The notes under the pieces: generated by a model
The model's database searches: none
Seen by the model: only the letters and a program-made list of their open reading frames with translations
Told to the model about the DNA's origin: nothing
Program-made: the position numbers and the translations under genes
Source: Verrucomicrobiota bacterium
GTDB taxonomy: Bacteria; Verrucomicrobiota; Lentisphaeria; JABSQK01; JAJFLO01
Direction of reading: 5' to 3'
DNA length: 64,000 bases
NCBI GenBank assembly: GCA_021772635.1
Contig: JAJFLP010000075.1
Span: forward strand, 750 to 64,749
Shown: in pieces, positions 27,246 to 46,983 of the stretch
Layout of the letters: each line of letters opens with the position of its first letter
How positions within the stretch are numbered: position 1 is the first letter of the stretch

Positions 27246-28898
27246 TTAGAAAATATTTACGCCGATTTCGAAATGAATTCCGTCATCCTGAAGATCGTGT
27301 TCGTCGTCTCCCGTCAGCTTTCGCAATGCGTGCCCCACGTACAACTCCGCATGTAAGGATTTTCCCGGGAACCATCGAAATCCCACACCGACACTTCCTA
27401 TATCCGGCGGCTCACTGGAACCGCTGCCGTCGTCCCAACTCACGCCATAGTCACTAAATAATGCTAACTGAACCCGGCCGTCAACGGGGCTCCGACTGAC
27501 TCCAGGGAGTTTAACGACGCCAACTGGCAGCCTAAATTCGAGACCGAACAGGAAACCGTTGTCCCGGGTTAACTCGTTTTCACGATACCCCCGAACCGTG
27601 TCGCGACCGCCGATCGGGAACTTTTCCAATGGCAACAACTCATTACTCGACAATCGCAGGGCGCCGCGCGCGAGGATCTCACTGTTACGAAAATGAAGTC
27701 TGTGAAGGCTCTGAAACTGGGTTAACCAAGTGGTAAATTCGCCATCCGGCGCATTCTTTTGAATCGTCGCATCTAAAGCGTTTATGCCAACATTAAGTTG
27801 AGAGCGACAGGTCACTACACGGGCCTCAGTTCTATCAATCCACTCCCCTCCAATACCCAAAACAGAAACGCGGCTAACGCCGTTAACGACTCCTTGCGAA
27901 AAAGAAAAGGGCTGACCCAATAGAAACGTTTCACTTTTCTTTCGTTCCGCAGTTAAAGTCAACGCGAACTCTTTAGAACCCCGCCGTAGTAGCGGGTGCC
28001 GCAGTTCGATTCCATACGTATCGGTATCACTGTCAATATCCAGATCGTCGAAATCTCTGGTGATAACGGTCGAATCATTCGCTTGATATCTGAAGGTAAG
28101 GGTCGTATCGCTACGGGTCACTGGTATCGTCAGAAATACGCTGTAGTCGTCAAGTCCCTCCGTTAACCCGTAACTTCCGCCAAGCACCTCTCCCCAGCCA
28201 GTGATATTTTTGTATGCCGCCCCCAGCTCTCCGCGATAACTCCCGATACTCGGTGATCGGTGGTTATTGAAAACGAAATTACTCGAAATGGGGTCCGCTT
28301 CCTCGGTTGTCACCCTAAGCACACTTTCTCCGAGTTTCATACCGGGGGACAACTGTGTATCGACGCGCTTAATCAGAGAATTTTGCTGGAGCCTGCGAAG
28401 AGGTTCCTGTAGCTCAATCACATTTAACGGGGTGTTAATCCCGTCCTCAATCCGACTACGGATAAACCTTTCGCGCAAGCGACCATTCGTCCTAATTTGA
28501 ATAGAGCTCAGGGCCCCTTCGATTATTTGAAATTCAACGCGCCCATCCGTTATTTTCTGATCAGGGAGAAGGGCGCCAGATGTTAGATACCCCTTGTCAA
28601 TATAGAGGTTTGTGATTTCATTCTTGAGCTCAAATAAATCTCTGGAGTTAAGTTCTCGACCGATAAATCGCGTCGTAACAACGAATATTTCCTCGTCGGA
28701 GATTACGGTGTTCCCGCGAATGATAAACTCGTCAACAACCACATGCTCCAACCCGGACAATTGCCCCTCCGGCACTGTAACTGGGGGAAGGGCTAAATTA
28801 TTCGCTTCAGCGTTAATAACCGTTGTGTACATAACCGCAAAAATGGCCAGTCTAATGCTGACTAATGTGAGAATTGCCGTCGAAGTTTTACGATGCAT
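27246..28898 (-). CDS. ShlB/FhaC/HecB two-partner secretion outer-membrane protein (TpsB)
   Basis: POTRA (FIIRGNTVIS, YIDKGYLTS), VRGYRE, C-terminal GIHFEIGVNIF. Confidence 0.9.
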   Translation of the reverse strand: MHRKTSTAILTLVSIRLAIFAVMYTTVINAEANNLALPPVTVPEGQLSGLEHVVVDEFIIRGNTVISDEEIFVVTTRFIGRELNSRDLFELKNEITNLYIDKGYLTSGALLPDQKITDGRVEFQIIEGALSSIQIRTNGRLRERFIRSRIEDGINTPLNVIELQEPLRRLQQNSLIKRVDTQLSPGMKLGESVLRVTTEEADPISSNFVFNNHRSPSIGSYRGELGAAYKNITGWGEVLGGSYGLTEGLDDYSVFLTIPVTRSDTTLTFRYQANDSTVITRDFDDLDIDSDTDTYGIELRHPLLRRGSKEFALTLTAERKKSETFLLGQPFSFSQGVVNGVSRVSVLGIGGEWIDRTEARVVTCRSQLNVGINALDATIQKNAPDGEFTTWLTQFQSLHRLHFRNSEILARGALRLSSNELLPLEKFPIGGRDTVRGYRENELTRDNGFLFGLEFRLPVGVVKLPGVSRSPVDGRVQLALFSDYGVSWDDGSGSSEPPDIGSVGVGFRWFPGKSLHAELYVGHALRKLTGDDEHDLQDDGIHFEIGVNIF

Positions 28899-30359: not shown

Positions 30360-30447
30360 ATTCGTAATCGTACTCGTAATCATAATCTTTCTAGTTTTTC
30401 GAGGTGAGATTTAGAAAGAGATTACGATTATGAGTACGAGCACGAAG
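30360..30447. repeat. Inverted pair of 6-mer arrays
   Basis: cgtaatcgtactcgtaatcataatctttcta / tagaaagagattacgattatgagtacgagcacg. Confidence 0.65.
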
Positions 30448-30582
30448 AAAATCCAACGAAAAGTTCGCTGGAATTGGGACTCGTTGCAAACGCGCACCGT
30501 AATTTTCAATAAAGCTAGGCCCCTTAAACTACTAAAGCTATCGGGATACCGCAAGTTGCGGTTGATTTTGAGAAAACGAAGA

Positions 30583-32232
30583 ATGATTAAAACATCCCAA
30601 ACCAATTTAAGCAGTTGCGCTGCCTGGTGGGAACCGAACGGATCGCTCCCCTCCACCTCCGACAAGGTTTTGCGCGAGAGGCTACTTACGATTAATGAAC
30701 CTGTTGTCATCGTTGAAGACGGCGGTAGCCAGTCGCTAGCATCGGGAGGCGTCACTCGATTGGGAGAAACCGTTGTGAAGGAAAAGGGGTTCCCGATCGT
30801 CGGGTACGCGCATCCAATTGCTCCGGGACTTCTTGGCGATCCATCGTTCTGCAGGGATTATGGACTTAGATACCCATACGTTTCGGGCGCAATGGCGAAC
30901 GGGATTGGATCTGCTGACATCGTCGAGGAAATGGGGAACGCAGGTATGCTCGGTTTCTTCGGCGCCGCAGGATTGCCCCTCGGCTTGATAGAAACGGCGA
31001 TAGATCGAATTACAAAATCATTGGAGGACAAACCGTACGGCTTCAATCTAATCCACAGCCCTAATGAGCCGGAACTTGAAAACGCCATAGTCGCCTTATA
31101 TCTCGACCGAGGCGTTCGGCTGGTTGAAGCCTCGGCTTATCTCGGCCTCACACTTCCGGTGATCCGCTATCGCGTTTCCGGAATCCACCAGGATTCAACT
31201 GGCAGGATAGTGACACCGAATCGGATCATCGCGAAGGTCTCACGAATCGAAGTCGCTTCGAAATTCCTGGCGCCCCCTCCTGAGCCAATGTTAAACCAAC
31301 TCGTCGCAGCCGGCGATATCACCCTGGACCAGGCGCGGCTCGCATCGAAGATACCCGTGGCGCAGGACATAACCGTCGAGGCCGATTCCGGCGGGCATAC
31401 CGACAATCAGCAGGCAGTGACCTTGCTGCCGACAATGACTGCGCTTCGCGATCGCCTTCAAGCGGAACATAACTATGAGGTCCAGCTCAGGGTTGGGGCT
31501 GGAGGAGGCGTGGCGACTCCAGCATCTGCGGCCGCATTTTTCTCTATGGGCGCTGCGTATATTGTGACTGGAACGATCAATCAGTGCTCAATAGAAGCGG
31601 GTACATCTGATACAGTCCGCGAGATGCTGGCACAGGCGCAGCAGGCGGATATAACCATGGCCCCGGCTGCGGACATGTTCGAAATGGGCGTCCAGGTCCA
31701 GGTTCTCAAGCGTGGTACGATGTTTGCAATGCGAGGCGCCCGGCTGTATGATATTTACCGGTCTTGCGATGGTCTTGACAGTATACCTCTTGCAGAGCGA
31801 TCGGTTCTCGAGAAGACAATTTTTCGGGCGCCGCTTGAAACAATATGGGAGCAAACGAAGGCCTTTTTTCAAGATCGTGATCCGGCTCAGGTCACAAGAG
31901 CGGAGTCCGATAAAAAACACCGAATGGCACTGGTTTTTCGGTGGTATCTCGGACAATCATCGAACTGGGCGAACACAGGCGAGCCATCAAGAAAAATTGA
32001 CTACCAAATTTGGTGTGGCCCCGCAATGGGCGCTTTTAACGAATGGGTCAAGGGGACCTTCCTCGAGGATTACCAGAACCGGAAAGTCGCCACCATCGCG
32101 TTCAATATACTATACGGAACGGCCGTGCAACTGCGCCTGAATTCACTTAAGAACCAGGGCGTTTCGATTTCGGGCGGTACTTGTACGATTCAGCCGCGGC
32201 CAGTCGCAGAGATTAAGGAATACTTCGAGTGA
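30583..32232 (+). CDS. pfaD: PUFA synthase enoyl reductase PfaD
   Basis: SGAMANGI, EASAY, EADSGGHTDN, DMFEMG, DYQIWCGPAMGAFN; likely start MIKTSQ at 30583. Confidence 0.95.
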   Translation: MIKTSQTNLSSCAAWWEPNGSLPSTSDKVLRERLLTINEPVVIVEDGGSQSLASGGVTRLGETVVKEKGFPIVGYAHPIAPGLLGDPSFCRDYGLRYPYVSGAMANGIGSADIVEEMGNAGMLGFFGAAGLPLGLIETAIDRITKSLEDKPYGFNLIHSPNEPELENAIVALYLDRGVRLVEASAYLGLTLPVIRYRVSGIHQDSTGRIVTPNRIIAKVSRIEVASKFLAPPPEPMLNQLVAAGDITLDQARLASKIPVAQDITVEADSGGHTDNQQAVTLLPTMTALRDRLQAEHNYEVQLRVGAGGGVATPASAAAFFSMGAAYIVTGTINQCSIEAGTSDTVREMLAQAQQADITMAPAADMFEMGVQVQVLKRGTMFAMRGARLYDIYRSCDGLDSIPLAERSVLEKTIFRAPLETIWEQTKAFFQDRDPAQVTRAESDKKHRMALVFRWYLGQSSNWANTGEPSRKIDYQIWCGPAMGAFNEWVKGTFLEDYQNRKVATIAFNILYGTAVQLRLNSLKNQGVSISGGTCTIQPRPVAEIKEYFE

Positions 32233-35200
32233 CAGAGTCAGACTCAGAGACAATTGTGAAAAAGAAAATGATTCGCCCGACCCCGATCGCGATCGTCGGA
32301 ATGGGTTGCATGTTCCCGAAAGCCAACGATCCGGAAGTGTATTGGGCGAATATAAACAACTGCGTCGATGGCATTACAGGAATTCCGGAAACCCACTGGC
32401 GTCCCGAGGACTATTATAACGCAGATCCCGCGGCACGGGATCAAACATATGCGAAGCGCGGCGGGTTCATTGAACCGATTCAATTTAACCCAATGGAATA
32501 CGGCATTTCCCCTCGCGACCTGGAAGCGATCGACACGACGCAGCTTCTCGGACTGGTCGTCGCCAAACAAGCACTTAAAGATGCGGGATACGATGAAGAT
32601 AGCGATTTCGACCGAAGCAGAACCAGCGTCATACTAGGGGTAACCGGCGCTCTCGAACTCGTTGTTACCCTATCTGCACGTTTAGGACACCCGAACTGGC
32701 GTAACGCGTTGAAAGACGCCGGTGTTGACCCGCAATTGGCGGCGGATGTGATGGCAAGGATTTCAGACTCGTACGTCGATTGGCAGGAGAACTCGTTCCC
32801 TGGATTACTCGGAAACGTCGTTGCCGGCCGCATTGCGAACCGGCTGAACTTGGGCGGGACGAATTGTGTGGTTGATGCTGCCTGCGCAAGCTCTCTGACA
32901 GCGATGCACTTAGCGAGCCTTGAACTGTCATCCGGCCGCAATGATATCGTCGTAACCGGCGGTATGGATACGTTCAATGATATCTTCATGTACATGTGTT
33001 TCAGTAAAACCCCCGCACTTTCGCCAACGGGTGATTCTAAGCCGTTCGACCATGAAGCCGACGGCACAATTCTGGGCGAAGGTATCGGCGTTGTAGTGCT
33101 GAAGCGTCTTGAGGATGCGCAACGTGATAACGATAGAATATACTCCGTAATTCGGGGTGTAGGCTCCTCAAGCGACGGAAAAGGCGACGCGGTTTACGCG
33201 CCGAGCAGTGAGGGCCAAACTCGCGCCCTTCGCCAAGCCTACGAACTTGCGGACATTTCCCCTGACACGATTGAACTTGTCGAAGCGCATGGCACCGGGA
33301 CCAAGGTGGGAGATGCAATCGAAGCTCGTGCGCTTTCGGACTTGTACAGAGAATCAGGACGCGCCGATACATGGTGTGCATTAGGATCAGTGAAGTCACA
33401 GATCGGGCACACGAAAGCGGCCGCCGGCATTGCGGGCCTGATAAAAGCTTCACTGGCGCTTTACCATAAAGTTCTTCCGCCCACAATGAAAGTAACGCGA
33501 CCGCTGGAGGTCGTTCAAGGGAACGGCTCGCCTTTCTACCTGAATACGACTAAACGCCCCTGGATGCCGTCCATAGAACACCCGCGTCGCGCGGGAGTGA
33601 GTTCCTTCGGGTTCGGTGGAAGTAATTTTCACTGCGTGCTCGAAGAAGCGGACGATCGGAAACCGTGTGTTGATTGGGATGGAGAAATCCAACTTCTCGT
33701 TTTTACCGGCGATAGCCGCGCGGAAATATCCGGTAAACTTGATAATTGGCTTGGGTACGATGAGCCGTGGCGCGCGTTCAGGCATAAAGCTGCTGAGAGT
33801 CGGCGTGCCTATGACGGCGATGATAACTGTCGCCTTATATTCGTCGTTCAGAAAGGGGCGTCAAACCTTGCGAAATCGATAGGACAAGCAAAGAAGATCC
33901 TTGATGACAATAGTTCAGGAGAGCACTGGAGCACCCCGGATGGGGTCTACTTCGGCACTGGCGTCAGTGATGGGCAAATAGGCGTACTCTTCCCCGGGCA
34001 GGGATCGCAGTATGTCGGCATGTTTCGCGATCTCGCGTGTCACTTCCCGCAAATGCAAGAAGCGCTTGCGGCCGCTAACGCAGTCTTTTCCGAGCACGAA
34101 GCAGCCCAGTCTGGCAAACGATTAACAGATATCATTTTCCCGTTTCCGGAATTTGACGATGACGAGATAACGAAGAACGAGTCTGCACTGCGTGATACCC
34201 GCGTCGCTCAGCCGGCAATCGGTGCGGTCTGTATGGGACTGTTCTCTATACTTCAGGACTTTGGACTTAAACCCCATACTGTCGCGGGACACAGTTACGG
34301 GGAACTACCCGCGCTGTGCGCGTCCGGAAGATTCGGGGCAACCACTCTACACGCGCTATCGAACCTGCGCGGACAGCTAATGGCGGCGAAACACAGTTAC
34401 AAGGGAACGATGCTCGCGGTGAAGGCCTCCGGCGATCAGGTATTGAAATTAATAAAATCAGCGGGCCTCGACCTTGTGGTCGCCAACAAAAATGGACCCG
34501 AGCAAATCGTGCTTTCCGGCGCAGAGAAAGTGATCGACAAAGCAGCGGGACTATTTTCCCAGATGGGAATCGGCCATAAGCTTCTAAAGGTATCATCTGC
34601 ATTCCACAGTGCGTGGGTTTCACATGCCCGCGAGCCATTCTCAGACGCACTTCAGAAAATTAAATTTTCCGCGGCCAAAATACCTGTCTACGCAAATAGC
34701 ACCGCGCAACCGTACCCGAATCGAGCCTCACAGATTCGAGAACTTCTTGCCGGACAACTAGCACGACCGGTCGAGTTCATGGATCAGATCACCAATATGT
34801 ATGGTGCTGGAGTTCGCACGTTTGTTGAGGTTGGCCCGGGATATGGATTAACAGGACTGGTCTCGTCAATACTGAAGGGTAAGGATTTTACCGCTTTTGC
34901 AACTGATTCGTCAGCTGGCAAGCGCTCTGGATTCGTGGATCTCGGACGAACGCTTGCGCATTTGGCGTCCTTGGGAATTCCGGTGCAGTTAGATAAATGG
35001 GACAACATTGCGTTGCCTGACGACATCGGGACGAAACCAGGATTTGCTGTTTCCCTATGTGGCGCGAACTACGTAAATAAAGCAAGCCAGGCGAAAGAAG
35101 AACCCTTTGCAAAGTCATCCGCTGCAGCTCTAATGCTCACTGCCGATCCAACGAGACAGAGTGCCTCTGAAATTGCGGACAGACAAACATCGAATCCCAA

Positions 35201-38200
35201 CTCGAACGAGATCAACAGGCCTCGGGTTAAAACACCGTCAAACCCGGCACCAAGCCCAACTGTTCCAGACGGCGTCCCTGCCCTTGCCACTTCGGGAGCG
35301 GCGACCATGGCATCCAGTGATGCGTTGCGCATTACGCAGCAGAACATGCTGGCGCTTCAAAAACTGCAGACCGAAACAGCTAAACTCCATCAACAATTCC
35401 TCAACGGCCAGGAGCACGCTCACGAAAATATGCGGGTTTTAATACAGCAACAGCAGCAGATCCTTAGCGGCTCATACTCTTTTACTGAATCACCACGGGT
35501 AAATGTCCCTGATATCCCGATGTCGTTGGAAATGCCAGCGAATTCTGAAGCCGCGAAACCGTCTCACGATCCGACAAACGCAGTGTCGGATACAGAAGCC
35601 GTTTCGCCTCGTTCCGAAAAGCACGATGTCATCCTCACAGAGAATTCAGCACAGGCAGGTTATATCGAAAAAGTACTCTTGGAAATTGTTGCTGATAAAA
35701 CAGGATATCCCGAGGACATTCTGAATTTGGAGATGAACCTCGATGCCGATCTTGGAATTGACTCAATTAAACGTGTGGAGATCCTCTCGGCCCTCCAGGA
35801 AAGAATGCCCGAACTTCCACCAATCGGAGCCGAGCAGTTGGGCAGTATTCAGACATTAGAACAAATAGTGGAGTTCCTGCAAGTACCGAAGACGGCCGAC
35901 GCTGCGTCAGAGCTAGCGCACCTGGAATCTTCGGGACCGGCGCAGGATCTTATCGCATCTACCTTGCTCGAAGTTGTCGCCGATAAAACAGGGTATCCAC
36001 TGGATATTCTCACATTAGACATGGGACTGGACGCGGATTTGGGGATTGATTCAATCAAGCGCGTTGAGATATTGTCTGCTTTACAAGAACGATTACCTGG
36101 CACCCCGGGATTAGGTCCAGAACACCTCGGGCAAATCCAGACGTTGGCGCAGATTATTGAGTTTCTGCAAGTCGCCCCCACCCCTGTCACCACAGATAAT
36201 AACGCTGTGAGCAGTCAACCCAGTTCAGCGCGAGAGAAAATTGCGGCGACGCTTCTTGAAGTTGTCGCTGATAAAACCGGATATCCACTTGATATTCTTA
36301 CGCTTGAAATGGGATTGGACGCTGACTTAGGAATCGACTCAATCAAACGTGTAGAAATCCTCTCAGCGTTGCAAGAGCAACTCCTCGATACTCCATCTAT
36401 TGGCCCGGAGCATTTGGGACAACTTCAATCGCTCGAGGAAATTGTCGATTACCTATCCGCCAAGAACGGTGATTCCAGTACGGATGCGCCAACGTCGCCC
36501 CCCGTCAAGGCGGAGGGCCCGGTACGTAGCTTACAATCTACTCTCGATGACAGCGCGATTGACCGTCACATAATAGTAACTGAAAAACTCGAAATAGATT
36601 CGAATCGACAGAGATTCCAATTATCCGCCGGCGCAAGGATAATGATAACAGATGATGGCGCCGGATTAGCGAAGAAGCTGTTTAAGGAACTTAGAAGCGA
36701 AGGATACGATCCGGAGATTATAGGCATTGGTATAGCGAAAGATATCAAACCGCCGCCTTACCTGGACGGGCTCGTCATTCTAACCCCCCTGTCAGGCGCG
36801 GGCAACAACGGATACTTGAATGCGGCATTCTCCCTGATTAAACGATTTGGCCCCGCATTACGAGCAAGTGGCCAGAGTGGTGGAGCTCTTCTTGCAACGG
36901 TTTCTCGGCTTGACGGTGCCTTCGGTCTCCACAAATCCTTCAGTAAAAGTGACCCCATTTCGGGGGGACTGGCAGGGCTGTCCAAGACATTATTGCACGA
37001 ATGGCCTGAGGTCCACTGCAAAGCAATCGACCTTGACTCAAGTATCAGGATGACAGAAAAACTCGTAAAATCGATTGTGGAAGAGATTTTTACCGCCGGG
37101 CCGGTGGAAGTTGGAATATCCTCGAAAGGGCGAGTTACACTTTCACTTCTGAAGAAGCCACTGAACGGTAAAGCAAGCGGACTGAAGATTTCATCCGACG
37201 ACGTTATTCTCGTGTCCGGAGGAGCGCGGGGCGTTACCGCCGAAACAGCGTTATCTATTGCTAACGCATGGCAGGCGTCATTACTGTTGGTGGGGCGCAG
37301 CCCGGAGCCATCCCCGGAACCGGACTGGTTGGTACCGCTTGCCGATGAAGCGTCCATAAAGAAGGCTCTGCTCGGGCAATCGGAAACAAAAATAACGCCG
37401 AAAGAGATCAATGTTAAATTTCATTCGCTCATGGCGAATCGCGAGATACTCCGCAATCTAAAGCGTATAGAGGCGGCTGGGTCACGCGTCGTTTACCGGT
37501 CTTTGGATATTCGCGATCGAAAGGCGGTGCAATCGATGGTGGAAGAAGTCACGAAGACGATTGGAGAGATTACCGGATTAGTCCATGGAGCCGGCGTGAT
37601 TGCGGATAAGCGGATTGAAGACAAAACCGAAGAACAATTTAATCTTGTGTACTCCACAAAAGTAGAAGGTCAGCTTTCGCTCCTCGCTGCGCTCGAACAG
37701 AAAGACATAAAATTTATGGTGTTCTTTTCTTCGTCCACGGGTCGCTTCGGGCGTACGGGCCAAATCGATTATGCCGCGGCTAATGAGGTACTCAATAAGC
37801 TTGCTCAACAAGAGGCAAGGAATAGACCCGGTTGCCGTATTCTTTCACTGAATTGGGGGCCTTGGGCCGGCGGGATGGTTACACCGGCGCTAAAAGGTGT
37901 ATTCGAACGGGAAGGTGTAGGTCTTATTCCGCTGAAAGCGGGAAGCGACTATATGGTTAAAGAGCTATTAAGCGCGTCCAGTGAGATGCCTGTAGAGGTT
38001 GTCGTCGTCGCTGCAGGTTCAAGAATTCAGAGCACCTCAAATTCGCCTGCCGCAATTTCTTCCGCATATAAGCTTGTTGTCGAGGAGAACCTATCGCTTA
38101 CATCGCACACGTACCTTGCGTCGCATATTTTCGGCGGAGAAGCGGTACTGCCAATGTCCATTATGATAGAGTGGTTGGCGCACAGCGCTATGCACGGGAA

Positions 38201-38930
38201 CCCCGGCTTAAAATTCGCGGGTATCGACAATCTGGAAATCAATTCGAAATTGGCCTTAACCGAGGATGAGCAAATCGTTATCCGGCTAAAGTCAGCGAAT
38301 GCCAGAAAAGAAAACGACCACTATGTGGTCCCGATAATTCTGTGCCGCGTTAAGGGCGACCTGGAAATTATTCACGCCAAAGCCAATGTCATACTAACCA
38401 GCCAGTTAACTGAAGATTCGCTGCGGCTGGATGATTCGGGGTTCAAACCTTATTCTGGCCATCCGATTCCATATGACGGTACAACCCTGTTTCATGGCAA
38501 ACATTTCTTCGGAATTAAAGCAATTGAGCGCCTTGACGAGAACGGCTTCACCGCGAGATGTGGTGTGGCTCCTGCGCCGGCGAAGTGGATAACGAGTCCG
38601 CTACGTAACCGGTGGCTAGCCGATCCGCTGGTTTTAGATTGTGCATTTCAACTTATGATCGTTTGGGCTGTGGAGACGCAGGGAATACCATCCCTTCCGC
38701 TCTCGGTTAAATCTTATCGTCAGTTCACTAATAAATTTCCGGCTGACGGTTGTCGAATTACAGCAGCGATCACCGGAATCGACGGACCGAAAGCTACGGC
38801 TGAAATAGAGATCAGCGACAGTGATGGAATGTTAGTCGCACGTATTGAGGGTTACACCTGCATTCTCGACCCATCTTTGGCTGACGCTTTTCGGCAGAAC
38901 ACACTTACCCCCCTCCCCTGCGGAACTTAA
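32229..38930 (+). CDS. pfaA: PfaA-type iterative PKS: KS-AT-ACPx3-KR-DH
   Basis: DAACASS, EAHGTGT, GHTK; GHSYG; three LDADLGIDSIKRVEIL; SGGARGVTA and YAAAN; HIFGGEAVLP and DCAFQ. Confidence 0.95.
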   Translation: MTESDSETIVKKKMIRPTPIAIVGMGCMFPKANDPEVYWANINNCVDGITGIPETHWRPEDYYNADPAARDQTYAKRGGFIEPIQFNPMEYGISPRDLEAIDTTQLLGLVVAKQALKDAGYDEDSDFDRSRTSVILGVTGALELVVTLSARLGHPNWRNALKDAGVDPQLAADVMARISDSYVDWQENSFPGLLGNVVAGRIANRLNLGGTNCVVDAACASSLTAMHLASLELSSGRNDIVVTGGMDTFNDIFMYMCFSKTPALSPTGDSKPFDHEADGTILGEGIGVVVLKRLEDAQRDNDRIYSVIRGVGSSSDGKGDAVYAPSSEGQTRALRQAYELADISPDTIELVEAHGTGTKVGDAIEARALSDLYRESGRADTWCALGSVKSQIGHTKAAAGIAGLIKASLALYHKVLPPTMKVTRPLEVVQGNGSPFYLNTTKRPWMPSIEHPRRAGVSSFGFGGSNFHCVLEEADDRKPCVDWDGEIQLLVFTGDSRAEISGKLDNWLGYDEPWRAFRHKAAESRRAYDGDDNCRLIFVVQKGASNLAKSIGQAKKILDDNSSGEHWSTPDGVYFGTGVSDGQIGVLFPGQGSQYVGMFRDLACHFPQMQEALAAANAVFSEHEAAQSGKRLTDIIFPFPEFDDDEITKNESALRDTRVAQPAIGAVCMGLFSILQDFGLKPHTVAGHSYGELPALCASGRFGATTLHALSNLRGQLMAAKHSYKGTMLAVKASGDQVLKLIKSAGLDLVVANKNGPEQIVLSGAEKVIDKAAGLFSQMGIGHKLLKVSSAFHSAWVSHAREPFSDALQKIKFSAAKIPVYANSTAQPYPNRASQIRELLAGQLARPVEFMDQITNMYGAGVRTFVEVGPGYGLTGLVSSILKGKDFTAFATDSSAGKRSGFVDLGRTLAHLASLGIPVQLDKWDNIALPDDIGTKPGFAVSLCGANYVNKASQAKEEPFAKSSAAALMLTADPTRQSASEIADRQTSNPNSNEINRPRVKTPSNPAPSPTVPDGVPALATSGAATMASSDALRITQQNMLALQKLQTETAKLHQQFLNGQEHAHENMRVLIQQQQQILSGSYSFTESPRVNVPDIPMSLEMPANSEAAKPSHDPTNAVSDTEAVSPRSEKHDVILTENSAQAGYIEKVLLEIVADKTGYPEDILNLEMNLDADLGIDSIKRVEILSALQERMPELPPIGAEQLGSIQTLEQIVEFLQVPKTADAASELAHLESSGPAQDLIASTLLEVVADKTGYPLDILTLDMGLDADLGIDSIKRVEILSALQERLPGTPGLGPEHLGQIQTLAQIIEFLQVAPTPVTTDNNAVSSQPSSAREKIAATLLEVVADKTGYPLDILTLEMGLDADLGIDSIKRVEILSALQEQLLDTPSIGPEHLGQLQSLEEIVDYLSAKNGDSSTDAPTSPPVKAEGPVRSLQSTLDDSAIDRHIIVTEKLEIDSNRQRFQLSAGARIMITDDGAGLAKKLFKELRSEGYDPEIIGIGIAKDIKPPPYLDGLVILTPLSGAGNNGYLNAAFSLIKRFGPALRASGQSGGALLATVSRLDGAFGLHKSFSKSDPISGGLAGLSKTLLHEWPEVHCKAIDLDSSIRMTEKLVKSIVEEIFTAGPVEVGISSKGRVTLSLLKKPLNGKASGLKISSDDVILVSGGARGVTAETALSIANAWQASLLLVGRSPEPSPEPDWLVPLADEASIKKALLGQSETKITPKEINVKFHSLMANREILRNLKRIEAAGSRVVYRSLDIRDRKAVQSMVEEVTKTIGEITGLVHGAGVIADKRIEDKTEEQFNLVYSTKVEGQLSLLAALEQKDIKFMVFFSSSTGRFGRTGQIDYAAANEVLNKLAQQEARNRPGCRILSLNWGPWAGGMVTPALKGVFEREGVGLIPLKAGSDYMVKELLSASSEMPVEVVVVAAGSRIQSTSNSPAAISSAYKLVVEENLSLTSHTYLASHIFGGEAVLPMSIMIEWLAHSAMHGNPGLKFAGIDNLEINSKLALTEDEQIVIRLKSANARKENDHYVVPIILCRVKGDLEIIHAKANVILTSQLTEDSLRLDDSGFKPYSGHPIPYDGTTLFHGKHFFGIKAIERLDENGFTARCGVAPAPAKWITSPLRNRWLADPLVLDCAFQLMIVWAVETQGIPSLPLSVKSYRQFTNKFPADGCRITAAITGIDGPKATAEIEISDSDGMLVARIEGYTCILDPSLADAFRQNTLTPLPCGT

Positions 38931-38942
38931 AAAGATCAAAGT

Positions 38943-39034
38943 GATACCGCAAGCGGTACAATTTTTGGCCGACTTCAAACTATCACGCACGAGATGTCGA
39001 ACGATATTTCGAAAACCCGAAGGCGTTTGGTATA
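38943..39034 (-). mobile_element. 92-bp family A element between pfaA and pfaBC
   Basis: Reverse complement tataccaaacgccttcgggttttcgaaatatcg...aaaattgTACCGCTTGCGGTAtc. Confidence 0.75.
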
Positions 39035-39151
39035 ATATCGATAGTTTCTTGCAACATATAAATCCTGCTGTATACCCGTAAGCAGGCGCGCCAGGTGGTT
39101 CCCTTCTGAATAAGAACACCGACACACACACAACTTCAGGCATCTAAATAA

Positions 39152-42100
39152 ATGAATATTGACGAATCCATTGCTATCGTCGGAATCGGCGGGACGTTCC
39201 CGGACGCACCCACCCTTGATCGTTTTTGGGATCACATCGTCAGTGGACGTGACGTTTGTCGTGATGTGCCGAAAAATAGATGGAGTTGCGATCCTCAAGA
39301 CGTATATGATCCGACTGGTCCGCTGCCAGATAAAGTTTATTGTAAACGCGGGTGTTTTATAGAGGATTTTCGTTTCGACCTGTCCGGACTTGATGTCGAC
39401 CAGGACTGGCTTGAGCGCCTCGATCCGATGTATCATTTTATCCTGGATGCAGGTAAACAAGCGTTCAATGATGCCGTCATGTCCAGATTGGACCACTCAC
39501 GTGTAGGAGTAATAATTGGCAATATCGCATTGCCAACCCAGAAGTCTTCCGAAATAGCGGGTGATATTCTTGGACGGACATTCGCCGAAAAAGTATCTTT
39601 GGCACAAGGGGGGAATGGTTCGACTGATACCGCTGCGATCAATCGTTATGTCACCGGTCTTCCCGCCGGGTTGTTGGCGCGCGCATTGAATCTTCAAGGT
39701 GGCAACTTCACTCTGGATGCTGCCTGTGCATCATCGTTGTACGCTCTAAAACTCGCGGCTGACGAATTGAGATCGGGACGACTGGACGCCGTTCTCGCCG
39801 GCGGCTTATCGCGGCCGGACTGCTTGTATACGCAAATGGGTTTCTCACAGCTAAAGGCGTTATCGGTTACTGGACGCTGCTCGCCGTTTGATGAGAAAGG
39901 CGATGGACTCATAGTCGGTGAAGGCGCCGGCATTGTCGTTCTCAAAAGACTGCCAGATGCATTAAGCGATGGGGATAGGATCTACGGTGTTATACGCGGC
40001 ATCGGGCTTTCAAATGATGTTAAAGGAAATTTACTTGCGCCGGATACTGAGGGGCAACTGCGAGCAATGCAACCGGCATACGCAAAGTCAGGATGGAAGC
40101 CATCCGACGTCGACCTGATCGAATGCCACGCTACCGGCACGCCGGTGGGCGATGCGGTAGAATTCGAGAGTCTGCGTCAACTCTGGTCGGATAGCGACTT
40201 TGATCCGGGACAATGCGTAATCGGATCGGTCAAATCGAACGTCGGACACTTGCTTACCGGCGCCGGAGCGGCCGGGTTAATAAAAGTACTGCTTGCACTG
40301 AAGAACAAGTCACTACCCGCGACCGCGAATTTTGAACAAGCCAATTCCAAAGTGGATATGGCGAACTCGCCGTTTCGCGTGCTGCGATCAAGTGAAGCAT
40401 GGGAAGAGCCTGCGGGCGGACGTCCTCGGCGGGCGGCTGTGAGCGGCTTCGGGTTTGGCGGAATAAACGCCCATGTCCTTATCGAAGAATGGCCGCCGCA
40501 CTCACCCACTCGAAAACCCAAGCGCGCTAAATCCGGAGCACAAACCTCTAAAGCTGACATCGCAATAGTTGGGATGGACGCGTACGTCGGCCCGTGGACC
40601 AACCTTGACCTATTCCGGGACCGGGTATTAGGAGGAGGCACCGGAGAACCCTCTGCAAAAGATCGTGCTTGGTGGGGATCGGCAGATAGTAAATGGTTCA
40701 GGAATAAAGGGCTGACGCGCGAGAGTCTAAAAGGCTATTTTATCGACAACTTTGAAATGCCGCTGCGCCAGTTTCGAATACCTCCTAAGGAACTGGAGCA
40801 AATGCTGCCGCAGCAGCTTCTTATGCTCCTTGTAGCCTTGCGCGCACTCGAAGACGCTGCGTACGATAAAGAAGGCGGACTACGGGCTAGCGTTTACATC
40901 GGCCTCGGCCTCGACTTATCTACTACCAATTATCACTTCCGCTGGTCCCTCATCAATAAAGCCCGAGAATGGGCCGATGCCAATGGTGGCAGATTAAACG
41001 CAAAGGTCGAAGCAGAATGGATTCGTGGCCTACGGGATTCAGCCGGCCCACCACTCTCCGCCGATCGGACCATGGGCGCGTTAGGAGGGATCGTTGCGAG
41101 TAGGATCGCCAGAGAGTTTCACTTCGGAGGGCCATGTCATACGATCTCATCGGAAGAAAGCTCGGGAATACGAGCCCTCGAGATCGCGGTTAGAGGATTA
41201 CAGAACTCTGAAATTGACCAGGCCTTGGTTGGCGCGGTTGATTTCGCGGGGGATATTCGATCGCTAATCGCAACCCATGAGGATCGGCCATTTTCGGCTG
41301 AAGGGGTTATTCGTCCGTTCGACATCCATTCGGATGGGACGATCCCGGGGGAAGGCGCGGTAGCATTGGTTCTAAAACGGGTCGAGGATGCCCGGCGAGA
41401 TGGCAATAAAATTTACGCGATAGTAAAAGGTATCGGTGCTGCGAGCGGCGGGCGTCCGAATGCCGTTATCCCAACAACTGAATCTTACTTACAAGCACTG
41501 GAGCGCGCTTATGCAGATGCTAATCTGGAGCCGTCACGGGTACAGTACATCGAGACTCACGGTAGTTCCGATCCTCAAGAAGACCGTATGGAAGCCGAAG
41601 CGCTGGCTGTATTCTTCCAGAACAACAACAAATCCGAGGCCGGACCGCGATATCTAGGCAGTGTGAAGGCCGACATCGGTCACACAGGAGCTGCTTCAGG
41701 ATTAGCATCAGTTGTGAAGGCCGCTGTCTGCCTCGACGCAACCGTGCTGCCGCCGATTAGAAACCTGACTAATTATCGGGACGAATTGGACGCCAGTGCC
41801 TTTAATCGCAATACTGCCCCGTCTCATTGGTTAAGAAATCGTATTGCCGGTCCCCGACGCGCCGGAATAAGCTCCTTCAGCGTCGATGGAACCTGCGCGC
41901 ATGTCGTATTGGAAGCCTGCGCACAATCAGATACTCGCTCTAATTTCTCCGCCGCGGGTCCCAAACCAATCTCAGTTGATAGAATTTTTGTCGTCGAAGG
42001 AGACGATACGGAATCGATTATCAAAGGGATAAATTCACTCCGCAAGGATCTGATAGTATCTCAAAATCGTGACTTTGGAGAACTTGCAGAGCACTGGTTC

Positions 42101-45100
42101 AACAGTACTGGAATGCGCCCCCGGGAAAAGCTCGGATTAGCCATCGTTTCGAGCGATATTTCTGAGACTATCGAGCTTCTGGATAAAACCAGAGTCAGCC
42201 TCGAAAAAGAGATTCCCGGCCAGGGTCTCCCCGAGCGGGTCTATTTCAATCCCAGTCCGCTGGGGAATACCGGAAAACTAGCTTTCGTCTTTCCGGGTTC
42301 CGGCACGTTCTTTCCCGAAATGGGTCGTGATTTGGCTCTAATGTGGCCGGAAGTCATGGAAGCGCTCGACAAGGACTGCAAACATCTTGCGGACCAATTC
42401 CCGGTCGTTCCGGCAGCCGACAGTAGTGTAGATGTAAAAGCGATGATTCTCGCCCAGGTATCACTCGGGTCATTAGTGACCGAGATTCTTGCCCAACATG
42501 GCGTAACCCCGGATGCAGCGATTGGCTATAGTCTTGGCGAGTCGGCAGCGATGTTCGCGCTTCGTGCGTGGACTGAACGGGACGAAGTGTTGGCTCGCCT
42601 AAACGAATCGACCCTGTTCACCGACGATTTAGCGGGAAATTATAACGCGGCACGAGAAACCTGGAAGTCCCGGAATAAACGAGGTATTTCATGGACTGTC
42701 GCTGTCGTCGACCGTTCCGCAGCCGCAATCAAAGAGGCACTAAACGCAACACCTCGTGTTTATCTGCTAATTATTAACACCCAGGAACAATGTGTAATTG
42801 GCGGTGATGACCATGCGGTAAGAACCTTCGTTAAGTCACTGAATTGTCACTTTACCCCAGTATCTGGCGTACCGTCGGTGCATTGTGAAGTTGTCAAGGT
42901 TGTCGAACAGGAATATCGGAACCTGCATCTCCTCAAGACAACCCCACCTTTGGGCGTTAAATTCTACGGTGCCGCGGTAACGACGGGTTACGTACCAACT
43001 CGCGAGAAGGTCGCGGACGCCATCGTCAATCAGGCGCTTTCAACGATCGATTTTCCATCAATGATTCAGTCCGCGTATGACGACGGGGTCAGAGTTTTTC
43101 TCGAGATCGGCCCGGGTCAATCCTGCAGTCGGATGATCTCCCGTATTTTGGGAGACAATGCGCACCTTGCATTTTCAGTGTGTGCTCCGGGAAAAGATAA
43201 CGTTTCCTTCATGCTCCAGGGACTTGGTCAGCTTATCGCCGAGAGAGTAAAAGTTGACTTATCCCCTTATTATCGAAAATTTTCGAACAGTACTGACGCT
43301 GTTGTCGCTCAGGTGAAAGTCCCGGCCCCGTCTATTAAAATACATACAGACGGGCCAGCATTCACCCCGCCACCTTTTCCCAATAGCAACGGCCAAGCGG
43401 TTCCAGACACGTTGATACCGACTTTACCCAGTCCGGCCCTTACCAGTGCCGGGGCACCTTTCAATATAGAACCGATTATCGCAGAGATGGCTGTCGCACA
43501 ACAAGCCAAGGCAGTAGCGCACGAGACATTCTTGCGCGTGTCCCGACAACTTTCCGATACACTTGCCGAAAATTTAAGCTTCCAAATGCAATTGGCAGAG
43601 CGTGCTACTCGATCAGGAGGAAGTGCGGTTGTTGACTCGGAGGTCACCTCATCTCCTGAGGCTGCCACGATAAAACGGGCTCTTGAGCCCCCCGCCTTCC
43701 CACGCGAACAATGCATGGAGCTTGCGATTGGCTCTCTTGGTGCGGTTCTCGGCCCCGAATTTGCGGAAATCGACCAGCACCCCACCCGCGTCCGCCTTCC
43801 AGGCGAACCGTTAATGCTCGTCGATAGAATTCTTGAAGTAGAGGGAACGCCTAAATCTATGACCTCAGGCCGGGTCGTAACGGAACATGACGTTCACCCG
43901 GGCGCATGGTATTTGGATAACGGCCGAATTCCGACATGTATCGCAGTTGAAGCGGGCCAGGCGGATTTATTCTTGTCCGGATATCTTGGCATCGATTTTG
44001 AGACAAAAGGACTGGCGGTTTATCGTCTTCTCGATGCGGACGTGACATTTCACGACGCCTTGCCGCAACCAGGCACCACTATTCGTTATGAAATCCGGAT
44101 CGACCACTTTTTCCGTCAAGGAGATACATATCTATTTCGCTTCAACTACGATGGAACGGTAAACGGCAAACAACTTATCACGATGCGGAACGGATGCGCG
44201 GGGTTTTTCACCGAGGCCGAACTGGCAGCAGGTCAGGGTATAGTTCAATCGAAGATCGACGAGAACCCTAAGAAACGTTCTCTCCCGACCGACTGGGTTG
44301 AACTTGTGCCACTGGAAACGACGATTTATAGCGACGAGCAGATTAATGCCCTCCGTAAAGGAGATCTTAAAGGATGTTTCGGATCGCTATTCGAGGGACT
44401 CCCGCTTACCGATCCTTTGACACTTCCCGAGGGACGAATGCAGTTGGTTGATCGCGTCCTGGAGCTGATACCGAACGGCGGGGACTTTGGCCTCGGCCTA
44501 ATTCGGGCGGAAGCTGATATCCACCCGGATGACTGGTTTTTAACCTGCCATTTTGTCGATGACATGGTCATGCCGGGGACGTTGATGTACGAATGCTGTT
44601 GCCATACTCTGCGAATCTTTTTGATGCGCTTAGGCTGGGTTTCCGATAAAAAAGACGGCGTATGGGAGCCGATTCCTGGCGTCATGAGTCGACTAAAATG
44701 CCGTGGACAGGTGAAACAGACGACAAAAAAAGTTGTGTACGAGATAATGGTAAAGGAACTCGGTTACCGACCAGCTCCGTACGCAATCGCTGACGCTTAT
44801 ATGTACAGCGACGGTAAGCGCATCGTTAAAATTTCAGATATGTGCTGTCAACTGACTGGTTTGACTAAGGATTATTTCACCCAACTATGGAATGGTCAAT
44901 CTACCTCTTCCGCCAAAAACATGGCGACTGCGCCACTGTACAGCTGTGATCAAATTTTAGAATTCGCGGTGGGTTCACCGTCTAAGGCGTTTGGCAACAG
45001 GTACAAGGTATTCGATAAAGATCGATTCATCGCGCGACTCCCGGGTCCACCATATCAGTTTTTACACCGGGTTACGAGGGTTGACGCCGAACCTTGGGTA

Positions 45101-46009
45101 ATCAAGGCAGGCGGCGTTATTGATTGCGAATTCGATGTCTCACCCGATGACTGGTACTTCACAGAAAATCAAGGCAGAATGCCATTCGCCATACTTCTTG
45201 AGGTCGCCCTGCAAACCTGTGGATGGTTTTCTGCGTATATGGGATCAGCGCTGGCAAGTGAAAAAAAGCTGCACTATCGAAACCTGGGTGGTGACGCGAC
45301 GCAGTATATGCCGGTAACGCCGGATATCGGGACACTCACGACGGCGACCAAGGTTACTGCAGTCGCCGACTCCGGAGGCATGCTTATACAGCATTTTGAA
45401 TTTGATATGCGCAGCGAAAGCGGCCGGGTCTACGCTGGAACAAGTTACTTCGGATTCTTCTCGGAATCTGCCCTCGCCGACCAACTCGGAGTACGTGATG
45501 CAAAGCGATACTCGCCAAGCGACGCGGAACTCGCACGTTCAACGTCATTCCCTTATCCGACGGGCGATCCCTATCCGTTGGATAAAATGCGGATGGTTGA
45601 TGAGATTACCGAATACATTGCGGACGGAGGCCCCGAGAAGCTCGGTTATATTCGAGGCAAAGCTTTGGTTAACGAGGATGCCTGGTTCTTCAAGGCCCAC
45701 TTCTATCAGGACCCTGTCTGGCCGGGTTCGTTGGGTTTGGAATCTATGTTGCAGCTGCTGCAGGTGTTCGCAACGAAACGCTGGGGAGGGGAAAAGGAAG
45801 TCAAACTGGAAACAATCGCCTGCGGCGAACCGCATCAGTGGATATACCGCGGTCAGATTTTACCGACGAACAAAGAAGTAACGGTCGATGCCGTAATTAC
45901 ACACGTGGACGATCAAAATAAAACCCTTCGGGCCGACGGTTTCCTGTCGCGTGATGGCCTAATTATATACGAGATAAAAAATTTAACATTAAAAGCCGAT
46001 ATATCTTAG
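39152..46009 (+). CDS. pfaBC: Fused PfaB/C: KS-CLF-AT-(DH'-DH)x2
   Basis: DAACASS/ECHATGT; CLF with SSEESS in place of the active Cys; GYSLG; CHFVDDMVMPG and AHFYQDPVWPG FabA-like DHs. Confidence 0.93.
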   Translation: MNIDESIAIVGIGGTFPDAPTLDRFWDHIVSGRDVCRDVPKNRWSCDPQDVYDPTGPLPDKVYCKRGCFIEDFRFDLSGLDVDQDWLERLDPMYHFILDAGKQAFNDAVMSRLDHSRVGVIIGNIALPTQKSSEIAGDILGRTFAEKVSLAQGGNGSTDTAAINRYVTGLPAGLLARALNLQGGNFTLDAACASSLYALKLAADELRSGRLDAVLAGGLSRPDCLYTQMGFSQLKALSVTGRCSPFDEKGDGLIVGEGAGIVVLKRLPDALSDGDRIYGVIRGIGLSNDVKGNLLAPDTEGQLRAMQPAYAKSGWKPSDVDLIECHATGTPVGDAVEFESLRQLWSDSDFDPGQCVIGSVKSNVGHLLTGAGAAGLIKVLLALKNKSLPATANFEQANSKVDMANSPFRVLRSSEAWEEPAGGRPRRAAVSGFGFGGINAHVLIEEWPPHSPTRKPKRAKSGAQTSKADIAIVGMDAYVGPWTNLDLFRDRVLGGGTGEPSAKDRAWWGSADSKWFRNKGLTRESLKGYFIDNFEMPLRQFRIPPKELEQMLPQQLLMLLVALRALEDAAYDKEGGLRASVYIGLGLDLSTTNYHFRWSLINKAREWADANGGRLNAKVEAEWIRGLRDSAGPPLSADRTMGALGGIVASRIAREFHFGGPCHTISSEESSGIRALEIAVRGLQNSEIDQALVGAVDFAGDIRSLIATHEDRPFSAEGVIRPFDIHSDGTIPGEGAVALVLKRVEDARRDGNKIYAIVKGIGAASGGRPNAVIPTTESYLQALERAYADANLEPSRVQYIETHGSSDPQEDRMEAEALAVFFQNNNKSEAGPRYLGSVKADIGHTGAASGLASVVKAAVCLDATVLPPIRNLTNYRDELDASAFNRNTAPSHWLRNRIAGPRRAGISSFSVDGTCAHVVLEACAQSDTRSNFSAAGPKPISVDRIFVVEGDDTESIIKGINSLRKDLIVSQNRDFGELAEHWFNSTGMRPREKLGLAIVSSDISETIELLDKTRVSLEKEIPGQGLPERVYFNPSPLGNTGKLAFVFPGSGTFFPEMGRDLALMWPEVMEALDKDCKHLADQFPVVPAADSSVDVKAMILAQVSLGSLVTEILAQHGVTPDAAIGYSLGESAAMFALRAWTERDEVLARLNESTLFTDDLAGNYNAARETWKSRNKRGISWTVAVVDRSAAAIKEALNATPRVYLLIINTQEQCVIGGDDHAVRTFVKSLNCHFTPVSGVPSVHCEVVKVVEQEYRNLHLLKTTPPLGVKFYGAAVTTGYVPTREKVADAIVNQALSTIDFPSMIQSAYDDGVRVFLEIGPGQSCSRMISRILGDNAHLAFSVCAPGKDNVSFMLQGLGQLIAERVKVDLSPYYRKFSNSTDAVVAQVKVPAPSIKIHTDGPAFTPPPFPNSNGQAVPDTLIPTLPSPALTSAGAPFNIEPIIAEMAVAQQAKAVAHETFLRVSRQLSDTLAENLSFQMQLAERATRSGGSAVVDSEVTSSPEAATIKRALEPPAFPREQCMELAIGSLGAVLGPEFAEIDQHPTRVRLPGEPLMLVDRILEVEGTPKSMTSGRVVTEHDVHPGAWYLDNGRIPTCIAVEAGQADLFLSGYLGIDFETKGLAVYRLLDADVTFHDALPQPGTTIRYEIRIDHFFRQGDTYLFRFNYDGTVNGKQLITMRNGCAGFFTEAELAAGQGIVQSKIDENPKKRSLPTDWVELVPLETTIYSDEQINALRKGDLKGCFGSLFEGLPLTDPLTLPEGRMQLVDRVLELIPNGGDFGLGLIRAEADIHPDDWFLTCHFVDDMVMPGTLMYECCCHTLRIFLMRLGWVSDKKDGVWEPIPGVMSRLKCRGQVKQTTKKVVYEIMVKELGYRPAPYAIADAYMYSDGKRIVKISDMCCQLTGLTKDYFTQLWNGQSTSSAKNMATAPLYSCDQILEFAVGSPSKAFGNRYKVFDKDRFIARLPGPPYQFLHRVTRVDAEPWVIKAGGVIDCEFDVSPDDWYFTENQGRMPFAILLEVALQTCGWFSAYMGSALASEKKLHYRNLGGDATQYMPVTPDIGTLTTATKVTAVADSGGMLIQHFEFDMRSESGRVYAGTSYFGFFSESALADQLGVRDAKRYSPSDAELARSTSFPYPTGDPYPLDKMRMVDEITEYIADGGPEKLGYIRGKALVNEDAWFFKAHFYQDPVWPGSLGLESMLQLLQVFATKRWGGEKEVKLETIACGEPHQWIYRGQILPTNKEVTVDAVITHVDDQNKTLRADGFLSRDGLIIYEIKNLTLKADIS

Positions 46010-46147: not shown

Positions 46148-46909
46148 ATGATAGCTAAAAGCGTAAAAATAGTCATAATGTTCCTTGTCATCGGCAGCTT
46201 ATCCTCGTCTGCTAACGCCGCGAACTTTGCTTTCAATTTTGTCAATACAGTGCAGCAGCAAAACAATGCGGGGGACTCTCTTGATCCGATTACAACCGCC
46301 ACCCTTAACTGGTCAACAGACTTGGAGCAGTATAATACTGACGGTGGTACGGGCACAACAAATATAGTCTCACCGGCTGGCGCTGTAAGCTATCCCATAG
46401 GGCCAGCTTATCCAAATCCAATCACCCACGCAAACGTTGATCTTACTAAAAAAGCTGTCCACGGAAAGTTTACCTTCGACGCTACCGCGGCGAATAAGGA
46501 TTCAACGACCGTTGAGTTTTTTATTTCCGATCCGTACAAAGCGGGCGGGCACCAGCTCTTCGTCGCAACCCAACTTGATAATCCGTCGTCAGGGATTATA
46601 CAGGTTGTCGATATCTCAGGCAACGTCTTTTTCTATCCCGGAAGTGCCGGGGTCGGGGTGTTTAACACCGACCCGGGTGCCTTTGCCCCTAAGCATCAAC
46701 TATCCTCAGATAGCGGTAACGTGGTCTGGCTCGCCTTGCCAGGTGCAATAACACTTTCGTCGTCGCAGGTAACATTGCTTGCACAGGTTGGGAATATTCC
46801 GGAGCCAAGAAACGTTCTTCTTTTTACGACCTTTCTGGGGGTCGCAGTGATGCTTCACAGAAAGAAACGTCAGGGATCTGTCCTCGTCGAAGAAGAAATA
46901 GCTGCATAA
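46148..46909 (+). CDS. PEP-CTERM sorting-domain surface protein
   Basis: Signal peptide; C-terminal IPEP + TM + HRKKR. Confidence 0.9.
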   Translation: MIAKSVKIVIMFLVIGSLSSSANAANFAFNFVNTVQQQNNAGDSLDPITTATLNWSTDLEQYNTDGGTGTTNIVSPAGAVSYPIGPAYPNPITHANVDLTKKAVHGKFTFDATAANKDSTTVEFFISDPYKAGGHQLFVATQLDNPSSGIIQVVDISGNVFFYPGSAGVGVFNTDPGAFAPKHQLSSDSGNVVWLALPGAITLSSSQVTLLAQVGNIPEPRNVLLFTTFLGVAVMLHRKKRQGSVLVEEEIAA

Positions 46910-46946
46910 ACTCAGTTGTTACGATATTTTTTTTCTTACTAACCGG

Positions 46947-46983
46947 CGCGCTTAAGAGATTTACTTCTCTTAAGCGCGTTTTT
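46947..46983 (+). terminator. Rho-independent terminator
   Basis: 13-bp stem cgcgcttaagaga/tctcttaagcgcg followed by TTTTT. Confidence 0.85.

Follow-up and report, generated by a model that had tools for sequence, protein, structure and literature searches.

Introduction

Among the described Pfa systems, which are synthases of the polyunsaturated fatty acid (PUFA) type, the Type I cluster of Shulse & Allen (2011) has the gene order pfaD-pfaA-pfaBC, in which pfaBC is a KS-CLF-AT-DH2 fusion (ketosynthase, chain-length factor, acyltransferase, dehydratase) without an AGPAT (1-acylglycerol-3-phosphate acyltransferase) domain, and it has been reported from Geobacter, Desulfuromonas, Pelobacter and Gemmata (PMC3098273). 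The cluster has been proposed as supplier of an olefin precursor (PMC3098273), and in Geobacter bemidjiensis, which carries pfaD-pfaA-pfaBC-oleABCD-pfaE in tandem, the hydrocarbon hentriacontanonaene (C31:9) is made (PMC4882568, PMC3098273). We describe here a pfaD-pfaA-pfaBC operon in a 64,000-nt stretch of contig JAJFLP010000075.1 (assembly GCA_021772635.1, Verrucomicrobiota bacterium), hereafter the window. Judged by layout and family membership, the operon is a Type I-layout Pfa synthase, i.e. a published and widespread kind of system in a new, Lentisphaerota-like host, and no new system.

In marine gammaproteobacteria, Pfa systems also feed OleABCD to give C31:9; in Shewanella the Pfa synthase is needed for this product, and OleA appears to take the 16:4n-3 chain straight from the acyl carrier proteins (ACPs) of the synthase (PMC6463001). 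With the chain drawn directly from the ACPs in this way, no thioesterase would be needed. The ATs of the PfaB type are late-stage, long-chain acyl transferases, with a Tyr beside the catalytic Ser and a Ser-His dyad as their hallmark, and PfaB has been proposed as a terminal or offloading acyltransferase (PMC12895367). In the myxobacterial enzymes, the C-terminal AGPAT is a unique feature and the chain-terminating step (PMC8436480).

Organization of the pfa operon

The operon consists of three co-directional ORFs on the + strand (30430/30583–32232, 32229–38930 and 39152–46009 in the ORF listing of the window), with about 15.2 kb (5067 codons) of uninterrupted coding sequence across the three genes:

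30583–32232, + strand: pfaD, FMN (flavin mononucleotide)-type trans enoyl reductase (ER), 549 aa from Met52 of a 600-aa ORF opening at 30430
32229–38930, + strand: pfaA, 2233 aa, GTG start; KS, MAT (malonyl-CoA:ACP transacylase), three ACPs, ketoreductase (KR) and DH of the polyketide synthase (PKS) type
38931–39151, + strand: pfaA/pfaBC spacer, 221 nt, with a promoter-like TCGAAA-16-TG-TATAAT at 39009–39036
39152–46009, + strand: pfaBC fusion, 2285 aa; KS-CLF-AT(PfaB type)-DH′-DH-DH′-DH, without AGPAT

The first ORF belongs to the PfaD family (TIGR02814, 639 bits, cut-off 449), and its closest solved structure is Shewanella PfaD (4yx6, E 1.5e-164). The second was identified as PfaA (TIGR02813, 1617 bits, cut-off 1010), with Pfam matches to KS, AT, three PP-binding domains, KR and PS-DH, and in the third, domain scanning showed a KS followed by a second KS-like domain (CLF), then an AT and four FabA-like stretches.

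For pfaD, position 30583 (Met52) seems a better start than 30430, because the relatives align only from residue 55–66 and their PfaD proteins are 548–552 aa long, compared with 549 aa here. Ahead of the likely start, 51 codons specify a strongly basic peptide of low complexity that the relatives lack. This stretch (30430–30582) is probably an untranslated leader rather than coding sequence. The pfaA start and the pfaD stop share 4 nt, and the same 4-nt overlap is found in two related loci (L081 and L086).

The 221-nt spacer between pfaA and pfaBC is unusually long, as the relatives with called genes have −4 to 103 nt at this point. The site at 39009–39036 resembles an extended −10 promoter (10/12 matches), by consensus match only. 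No RNA elements were found in the spacer or in the rest of the window beyond the two tRNAs of the window. In one close relative (L091, 5046–5826), pfaA and pfaBC are separated by an inserted toxin-antitoxin pair of the nucleotidyltransferase/HEPN type.

An independent second assembly from the same sample (L089, Logan SRR15505516) reproduced the cluster together with its downstream junction, and an assembly chimera between pfaBC and the PEP-CTERM-like gene that follows it was thereby ruled out. The G+C content of the cluster is higher, which prompted the idea of recent horizontal transfer; this was rejected, since the excess sits at codon positions 1 and 2, and G+C at the third position (GC3, 0.52–0.58) is like that of the host (0.51 ± 0.03). 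The operon was confirmed as real and intact, with no sign of decay.

Domain architecture and catalytic residues

The domains of the two large proteins and their catalytic residues were located as follows, all on the + strand:

32283–33494, +: PfaA KS, aa 19–422; C219, H354, H394
33987–34838, +: PfaA MAT, aa 587–870; GHSYG with S689; fabD-like, 189 bits
35673–36464, +: three tandem ACP domains with a 96-aa period; LGIDS at S1178, S1274 and S1370
37206–37868, +: PfaA KR, aa 1660–1880; Y1848
38055–38861, +: PfaA PKS-type DH, aa 1943–2211; H1966xxxGxxxxP and D2137xxxQ
39164–40336, +: PfaC-type KS of PfaBC, aa 5–395; C192, H326, H366
40559–41743, +: CLF domain of PfaBC, aa ~470–864; Glu669 in place of the active-site Cys
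42284–43126, +: PfaB-type AT of PfaBC, aa 1045–1325; GYSLG with Y1126-S1127, and H1244
43793–44833, +: first pair of pseudo-DH and FabA-type DH, aa 1548–1894; H1800 in HFVDDMVMPG
45035–45994, +: second pair of pseudo-DH and FabA-type DH, aa 1962–2281; H2183 in HFYQDPVWPG

Residues 5–864 of PfaBC align to the crystal structure of the Moritella marina PfaC KS-CLF (6riw, E 1e-133, and 2.3e-134 in the alignment used for the CLF). The CLF has Glu669 at the Cys position, as Moritella PfaC does, and is the inactive second KS that characterises the Pfa-type KS-CLF didomain. For the AT, the best solved structure was Shewanella baltica PfaB (9ry8, E 4.5e-32), to whose Y456-S457 and H573 the residues Y1126-S1127 and H1244 align; the score on the family model TIGR02816 (pfaB_fam) was 117 bits, under the cut-off of 144, and the Gln partner of the Tyr lacks a clear alignment. 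The His is present in both FabA-type DH domains (H1800 and H2183) and missing from the pseudo-DH in front of each. No PlsC/AGPAT match was obtained in PfaBC, which stops about 5 residues past DH2. Between one and seven ACP motifs are present per PfaA in the relatives, and the three of the window are unremarkable.

Placement among the Pfa systems

A search with PfaBC returned 7662 matches at E≤1e-20, and the best 120 of these 7662 were 2246–2423 aa long, with about 115 of them 50–56% identical over the full length. The named sources among the best 120 were Gemmataceae, Planctomycetes, Verrucomicrobiota, Elusimicrobiota, Geobacter, Geotalea and Malonomonas. The best match anywhere was 56% identical, and the window PfaBC appears to branch deep. 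In a distance-based neighbour-joining tree of 190 PfaBC sequences, without support values and with gene context known for some tips only, it falls into a small clade with the homologs P0009, P0016, P0002, P0004, P0005, P0057, P0026 and P0084. Scanning a single genome for each species yielded 80 related loci, which are spread over Planctomycetota, Phycisphaerae, Acidobacteriota, Desulfobacterota, Gammaproteobacteria, Nitrospirales, Hydrogenedentes and Limisphaerales, and the complete order pfaD-pfaA-pfaBC was present in 36 of them.

With pairwise identities and the one solved Moritella structure standing in for a formal KS phylogeny, the KS-CLF part was 55–61% identical to Type I-like proteins, as against 33–35% to the Moritella docosahexaenoic acid (DHA) synthase (KS 41%, CLF 28%). 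The identity was 55–58% for Geobacter, Malonomonas and Gemmataceae, which is another measure than the PfaA KS tree with its own reference strains that was used as the criterion in PMC3098273. The Type I layout, i.e. a pfaBC fusion of KS-CLF-AT-DH2 clustered with pfaD and pfaA, was found in the window. With the Type I members Geobacter spp., Desulfuromonas acetoxidans, Pelobacter propionicus and Gemmata obscuriglobus, the operon shares both the gene order and the fusion without AGPAT, and its PfaBC is 51–52% identical over the full length to those of Geobacter and Geotalea (KS-CLF 55–56% for Geobacter and Malonomonas); it differs in that no ole genes or phosphopantetheinyl transferase (PPTase) lie adjacent, and in its Lentisphaerota-like host.

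The myxobacterial Pfa1-Pfa2-Pfa3 systems of Aetherobacter, Minicystis and Sorangium have the same order of ER, KS-MAT-ACPn-KR-DH and KS-CLF-AT-DH, and their PPTase likewise lies elsewhere (PMC8436480), but the window lacks the C-terminal AGPAT of Pfa3; these systems were set apart by their published description, not by sequence comparison. The marine gammaproteobacterial pfaABCDE systems (Shewanella, Moritella and Photobacterium; Types A/B) have the same catalytic domain set, and all the best solved-structure matches for the window KS-CLF, PfaB-type AT and PfaD come from them. However, their pfaB and pfaC are separate, pfaD is last and PfaA has more ACPs, whereas the window has pfaD first and the AT as a fused domain, placed between CLF and DH. 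Type J of Planctomyces limnophilus, with pfaD followed by a pfaA of KS-MAT-ACP3-KR, resembles the window in its host from the PVC (Planctomycetes-Verrucomicrobia-Chlamydiae) group, its leading pfaD and its three ACPs (PMC3098273), but has no pfaBC, which in the window is complete. Synthases of the heterocyst-glycolipid and zeamine types were judged to be distant, since the Pfa domain set is complete and includes two FabA-type DH pairs, and since Type I-like proteins match at 50–56% over the full length; the lack of nonribosomal peptide synthetase/PKS or glycosyltransferase partners also disfavours them, and they were set apart by description, not by formal phylogeny.

An earlier reading of this DNA, made from the letters alone (the sequence-only reading), had listed the domain content with three ACPs and intact motifs, which the domain scans and residue checks bear out, and had seen no AGPAT, in agreement with the missing PlsC match and the end of the protein shortly after DH2. 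It had also set the layout apart from that of Shewanella and Moritella, rightly so in view of the leading pfaD and the fused AT, and had likened the order to the myxobacterial one. The order is indeed shared, yet the closest match is instead the Type I arrangement of Geobacter and Gemmata without AGPAT, an order found in 36 of the 80 related loci and in many phyla.

Linkage to ole genes in related loci

When the ORFs 3′ of pfaBC in the 80 related loci were clustered, four recurrent families were found, at median offsets of 62, 1104, 2060 and 3820 nt: a FabH-like thiolase (PRK09258, 443 bits), a haloalkane-dehalogenase-like hydrolase, a beta-lactone synthetase-like protein and a 2-alkyl-3-oxoalkanoate reductase. 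On the basis of their order and identity, these families represent OleA, OleB, OleC and OleD. The OleC-type enzyme reached 626 bits on the specific olefin beta-lactone synthetase model (cut-off 850) and scored highest, at 745 bits, on the general family of fatty acid CoA ligases, and the OleD-type enzyme reached 426 bits on the 2-alkyl-3-oxoalkanoate reductase model (cut-off 580).

Among the 61 related loci with at least 5.5 kb of sequence downstream of pfaBC, ole genes followed pfaBC directly in 46, with all four genes in 27, oleBCD in nine, oleA only in seven and a partial set in three, and 15 had none. For Geobacter and PVC strains, the primary report of the C31:9 hydrocarbon is that of Sukovich et al. 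in 2010.

Adjacent oleA was found in seven of the eight closest homologs examined. The genes oleABCD follow pfaBC in P0002, P0003 and P0008, the second of which reads pfaA-pfaBC-oleABCD-PPTase; P0009 has oleA, oleC and oleB; P0004, P0005 and P0026 have oleA alone; and P0006 has no ole gene within its 1.1 kb of flank. All members of the window clade with known context (P0002, P0004, P0005, P0009 and P0026) thus have an adjacent oleA. The contig of P0009 stems from the same sequencing run as the window contig.

Two further arrangements were observed. In L006, L012, L034, L044, L055, L070, L081, L086 and L090 (Phycisphaerae and metagenome-assembled genomes, MAGs), pfaBC is followed by oleA alone, for which the predicted product without OleBCD would be a polyunsaturated ketone and not an olefin, unless oleBCD lie elsewhere in the genome. 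In the Desulfosarcina/Desulfobacterales-type loci L023, L035, L038, L040, L042, L047, L051 and L077, pfaBC is followed by oleBCD without adjacent oleA, and neither pfaA nor pfaD is present in up to 10 kb upstream, which makes this a different arrangement within the same protein family.

Host and surroundings of the operon

The best named matches of the methionyl-tRNA synthetase in the window (7831–9762) were from Lentisphaeria, Victivallales and Lentisphaerota at 61–64% identity, the top match overall being 69% identical, which supports a PVC, Lentisphaerota-like host as the sequence-only reading had thought probable. Its remark that PPTase and thioesterase are missing from the window also held. 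Pfam and NCBIfam scans of 44 other ORFs of the window (all of at least 150 aa plus ten shorter ones, the remaining short gap ORFs lying outside the scan) gave no PPTase, thioesterase, acyltransferase or ole gene, and tblastn of the window with OleA–D and PPTase of close relatives, in search of remnants, gave only noise even at E≤10. Hidden accessory genes were likewise rejected, as the ten short and the unannotated longer ORFs returned toxin-antitoxin pairs, QueF and nucleotidyltransferases, and no hotdog thioesterase or ACPS (holo-ACP synthase).

On the 5′ side of the operon, the opposite strand carries an AAA_21 ATPase, a ShlB/TpsB-type transporter and a CHAT protein with TPR (tetratricopeptide) repeats. 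The last of these, a protease-like protein of 823 aa, lies directly downstream of the transporter, a 550-aa ShlB/FhaC-type outer-membrane protein with POTRA domains (24761–28898, − strand for the two), and the two look like a two-partner-secretion pair in which the CHAT protein would be the cargo.

On the 3′ side, 139 nt past pfaBC and on the same strand, a 253-aa secreted protein is encoded (46148–46909, +). Its tail (...IPEPRNVLLFTTFLGVAVMLHRKKRQG) is PEP-CTERM-like, with IPEP, a hydrophobic helix and RKKRQ, as judged by eye and with no Pfam or NCBIfam match. The only strong terminator on the + strand is a hairpin with a 15-bp stem at 46945–46980, after this gene, with none such after pfaBC, and read-through from the pfa operon into the PEP-CTERM-like gene is possible. 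Beyond it follow, on the minus strand, a TPR protein and an exosortase-EpsI fusion, and then lipopolysaccharide (LPS)-core-type kinases, glycosyltransferases and an ABC exporter.

The exosortase with its EpsI-like domain (DUF3485; 49408–51057, −) lies 3.4 kb downstream of pfaBC. Of the subtype models, the VPLPA-CTERM-specific XrtD fitted it best, but the 227 bits fall well short of the cut-off (400), and the protein may represent an exosortase subtype that has yet to be described. Three homologs of Kdo/WaaP-family LPS kinases (52896–54398, 61280–62095 and 62092–62916) are located within 10 kb of sequence, in the company of glycosyltransferases, a methyltransferase and an ABC exporter resembling MsbA, and the group looks like an LPS-core modification island beside the exosortase locus. 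Elsewhere in the window, small toxin-antitoxin-like pairs of an RHH (ribbon-helix-helix) antitoxin and a PIN toxin occur at 10227–10873 and 554–1215, and at the edge of the window a nucleotidyltransferase (227–508) adjoins a small partner ORF.

Proposed function

The three genes specify a fatty acid/polyketide synthase of the Pfa type (PUFA-synthase-like) that works iteratively and has the Type I layout, in which the MAT of PfaA would load malonyl units onto the three ACPs, and the chain would be extended by the KS of PfaA and the KS-CLF pair of PfaBC. In each cycle, the KR, the PKS-type DH, the two FabA-type DH/isomerases and the trans-acting ER PfaD would decide on keeping a cis double bond, the predicted outcome being a methylene-interrupted polyunsaturated acyl-ACP built without oxygen. 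The PfaB-type AT would act late in the pathway as a long-chain acyl transferase. Neither thioesterase nor AGPAT would be required, as in the Type I family the chain is most likely taken from the ACPs by the thiolase OleA, which would condense two 16:4n-3 chains head to head, with OleD, OleC and OleB completing the conversion to the C31:9 hydrocarbon hentriacontanonaene. The ole genes of the window genome, and an Sfp-type PPTase, would then have to lie outside the 64 kb. As no characterised Type I synthase exists, we infer the product, and likewise the use of Ole in this organism and the expression of the operon.

On balance, it seems somewhat more likely than not that the operon encodes a synthase of polyunsaturated acyl-ACP, with its Ole and PPTase partners encoded at another place in the genome, and the verdict of the sequence-only reading that the product is unpredictable was too pessimistic, since ole genes follow in 46 of the 61 loci and oleA in seven of the eight closest, pointing to a polyunsaturated chain as precursor of the C31:9 olefin. 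Lentisphaerae MAGs that carry ole genes have been described (PMC10176705). Several points nevertheless weigh against this assignment. The dedicated Sfp-type PPTase (pfaE) and the ole genes were not found in the 64 kb, even at E≤10, so that the link between Pfa and Ole rests on the relatives, of which 15 of 61 also have no adjacent ole genes; the neighbour-joining distance tree carries no support values, and gene context is known for some of its tips only. We know of no member of the Type I group whose synthase has been reconstituted. The published product assignment for Type I relies on co-occurrence and one C31:9-producing Geobacter (PMC3098273, PMC4882568).

The same 64 kb without ole genes, together with the quarter of related loci that have none adjacent, would also suit a PUFA synthase independent of Ole, in which the chain is finished to C18–C22, offloaded to a soluble ACP or hydrolysed by the PfaB-type AT, and incorporated into membrane phospholipids in the manner of eicosapentaenoic acid and DHA in marine gammaproteobacteria. 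The AT keeps the Tyr-Ser and the His of the dyad, consistent with the offloading role proposed for PfaB (PMC12895367). This explanation is possible but rather unlikely, as the closest relatives are ole-linked and the KS-CLF is just 33–35% identical to a characterised DHA synthase; moreover, long-chain PUFAs have to our knowledge not been reported from Type I organisms. That the operon is a stranded, silent remnant, out of use after its ole and PPTase partners were lost through rearrangement, is less likely still. The window is one of two exceptions without adjacent oleA among the nine closest sequences (itself included), but the about 15.2 kb of coding sequence are uninterrupted, every catalytic residue that was checked is conserved, and GC3 is like that of the host genes; furthermore, other organisms often have their PPTase and ole genes at unlinked sites (PMC6463001, PMC8436480).

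The sequence-only reading had taken the neighbouring exosortase and LPS genes as a hint of an envelope lipid, e.g. a lipid anchor or a modified outer-membrane lipid, tied to the PEP-CTERM-like protein, the exosortase and the LPS-core genes. The same-strand PEP-CTERM-like gene 139 nt after pfaBC, with the sole strong terminator beyond it at 46945–46980, agrees with this, though it is a weak point, as does the exosortase 3.4 kb downstream. The hint found no support in the comparison with other loci: nine window neighbours were tested (PEP-CTERM-like, TPR, exosortase, PMT_2-type glycosyltransferase, one Kdo/WaaP-type kinase, CHAT, ShlB, AAA ATPase and a CoA-binding protein), and none of them recurred within 10 kb of pfaBC in any of the other related loci L001–L088, where the recurrent neighbours are the ole genes. 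The exosortase and TPR genes also lie on the opposite strand, and such a lipid is very improbable. Just as doubtful is a combined scenario in which a Type I synthase of an anaerobic PVC (Lentisphaerota) lineage would work without Ole and deliver its chain to the envelope, perhaps co-transcribed with the PEP-CTERM-like gene and even serving the exosortase.

The sole slightly unusual trait of the operon is that it stands apart from the ole and PPTase genes, which in its nearest relatives lie alongside, and this makes it a possible test case for a Type I synthase working without Ole. With it, the Geobacter/Gemmata-type Pfa synthases gain a deep-branching member associated with Lentisphaerota, which shares no more than 56% identity with any database entry. 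It is from synthases of this type that the bacterial C31:9 hydrocarbon of anoxic and cold waters and sediments presumably derives its polyunsaturated chains.

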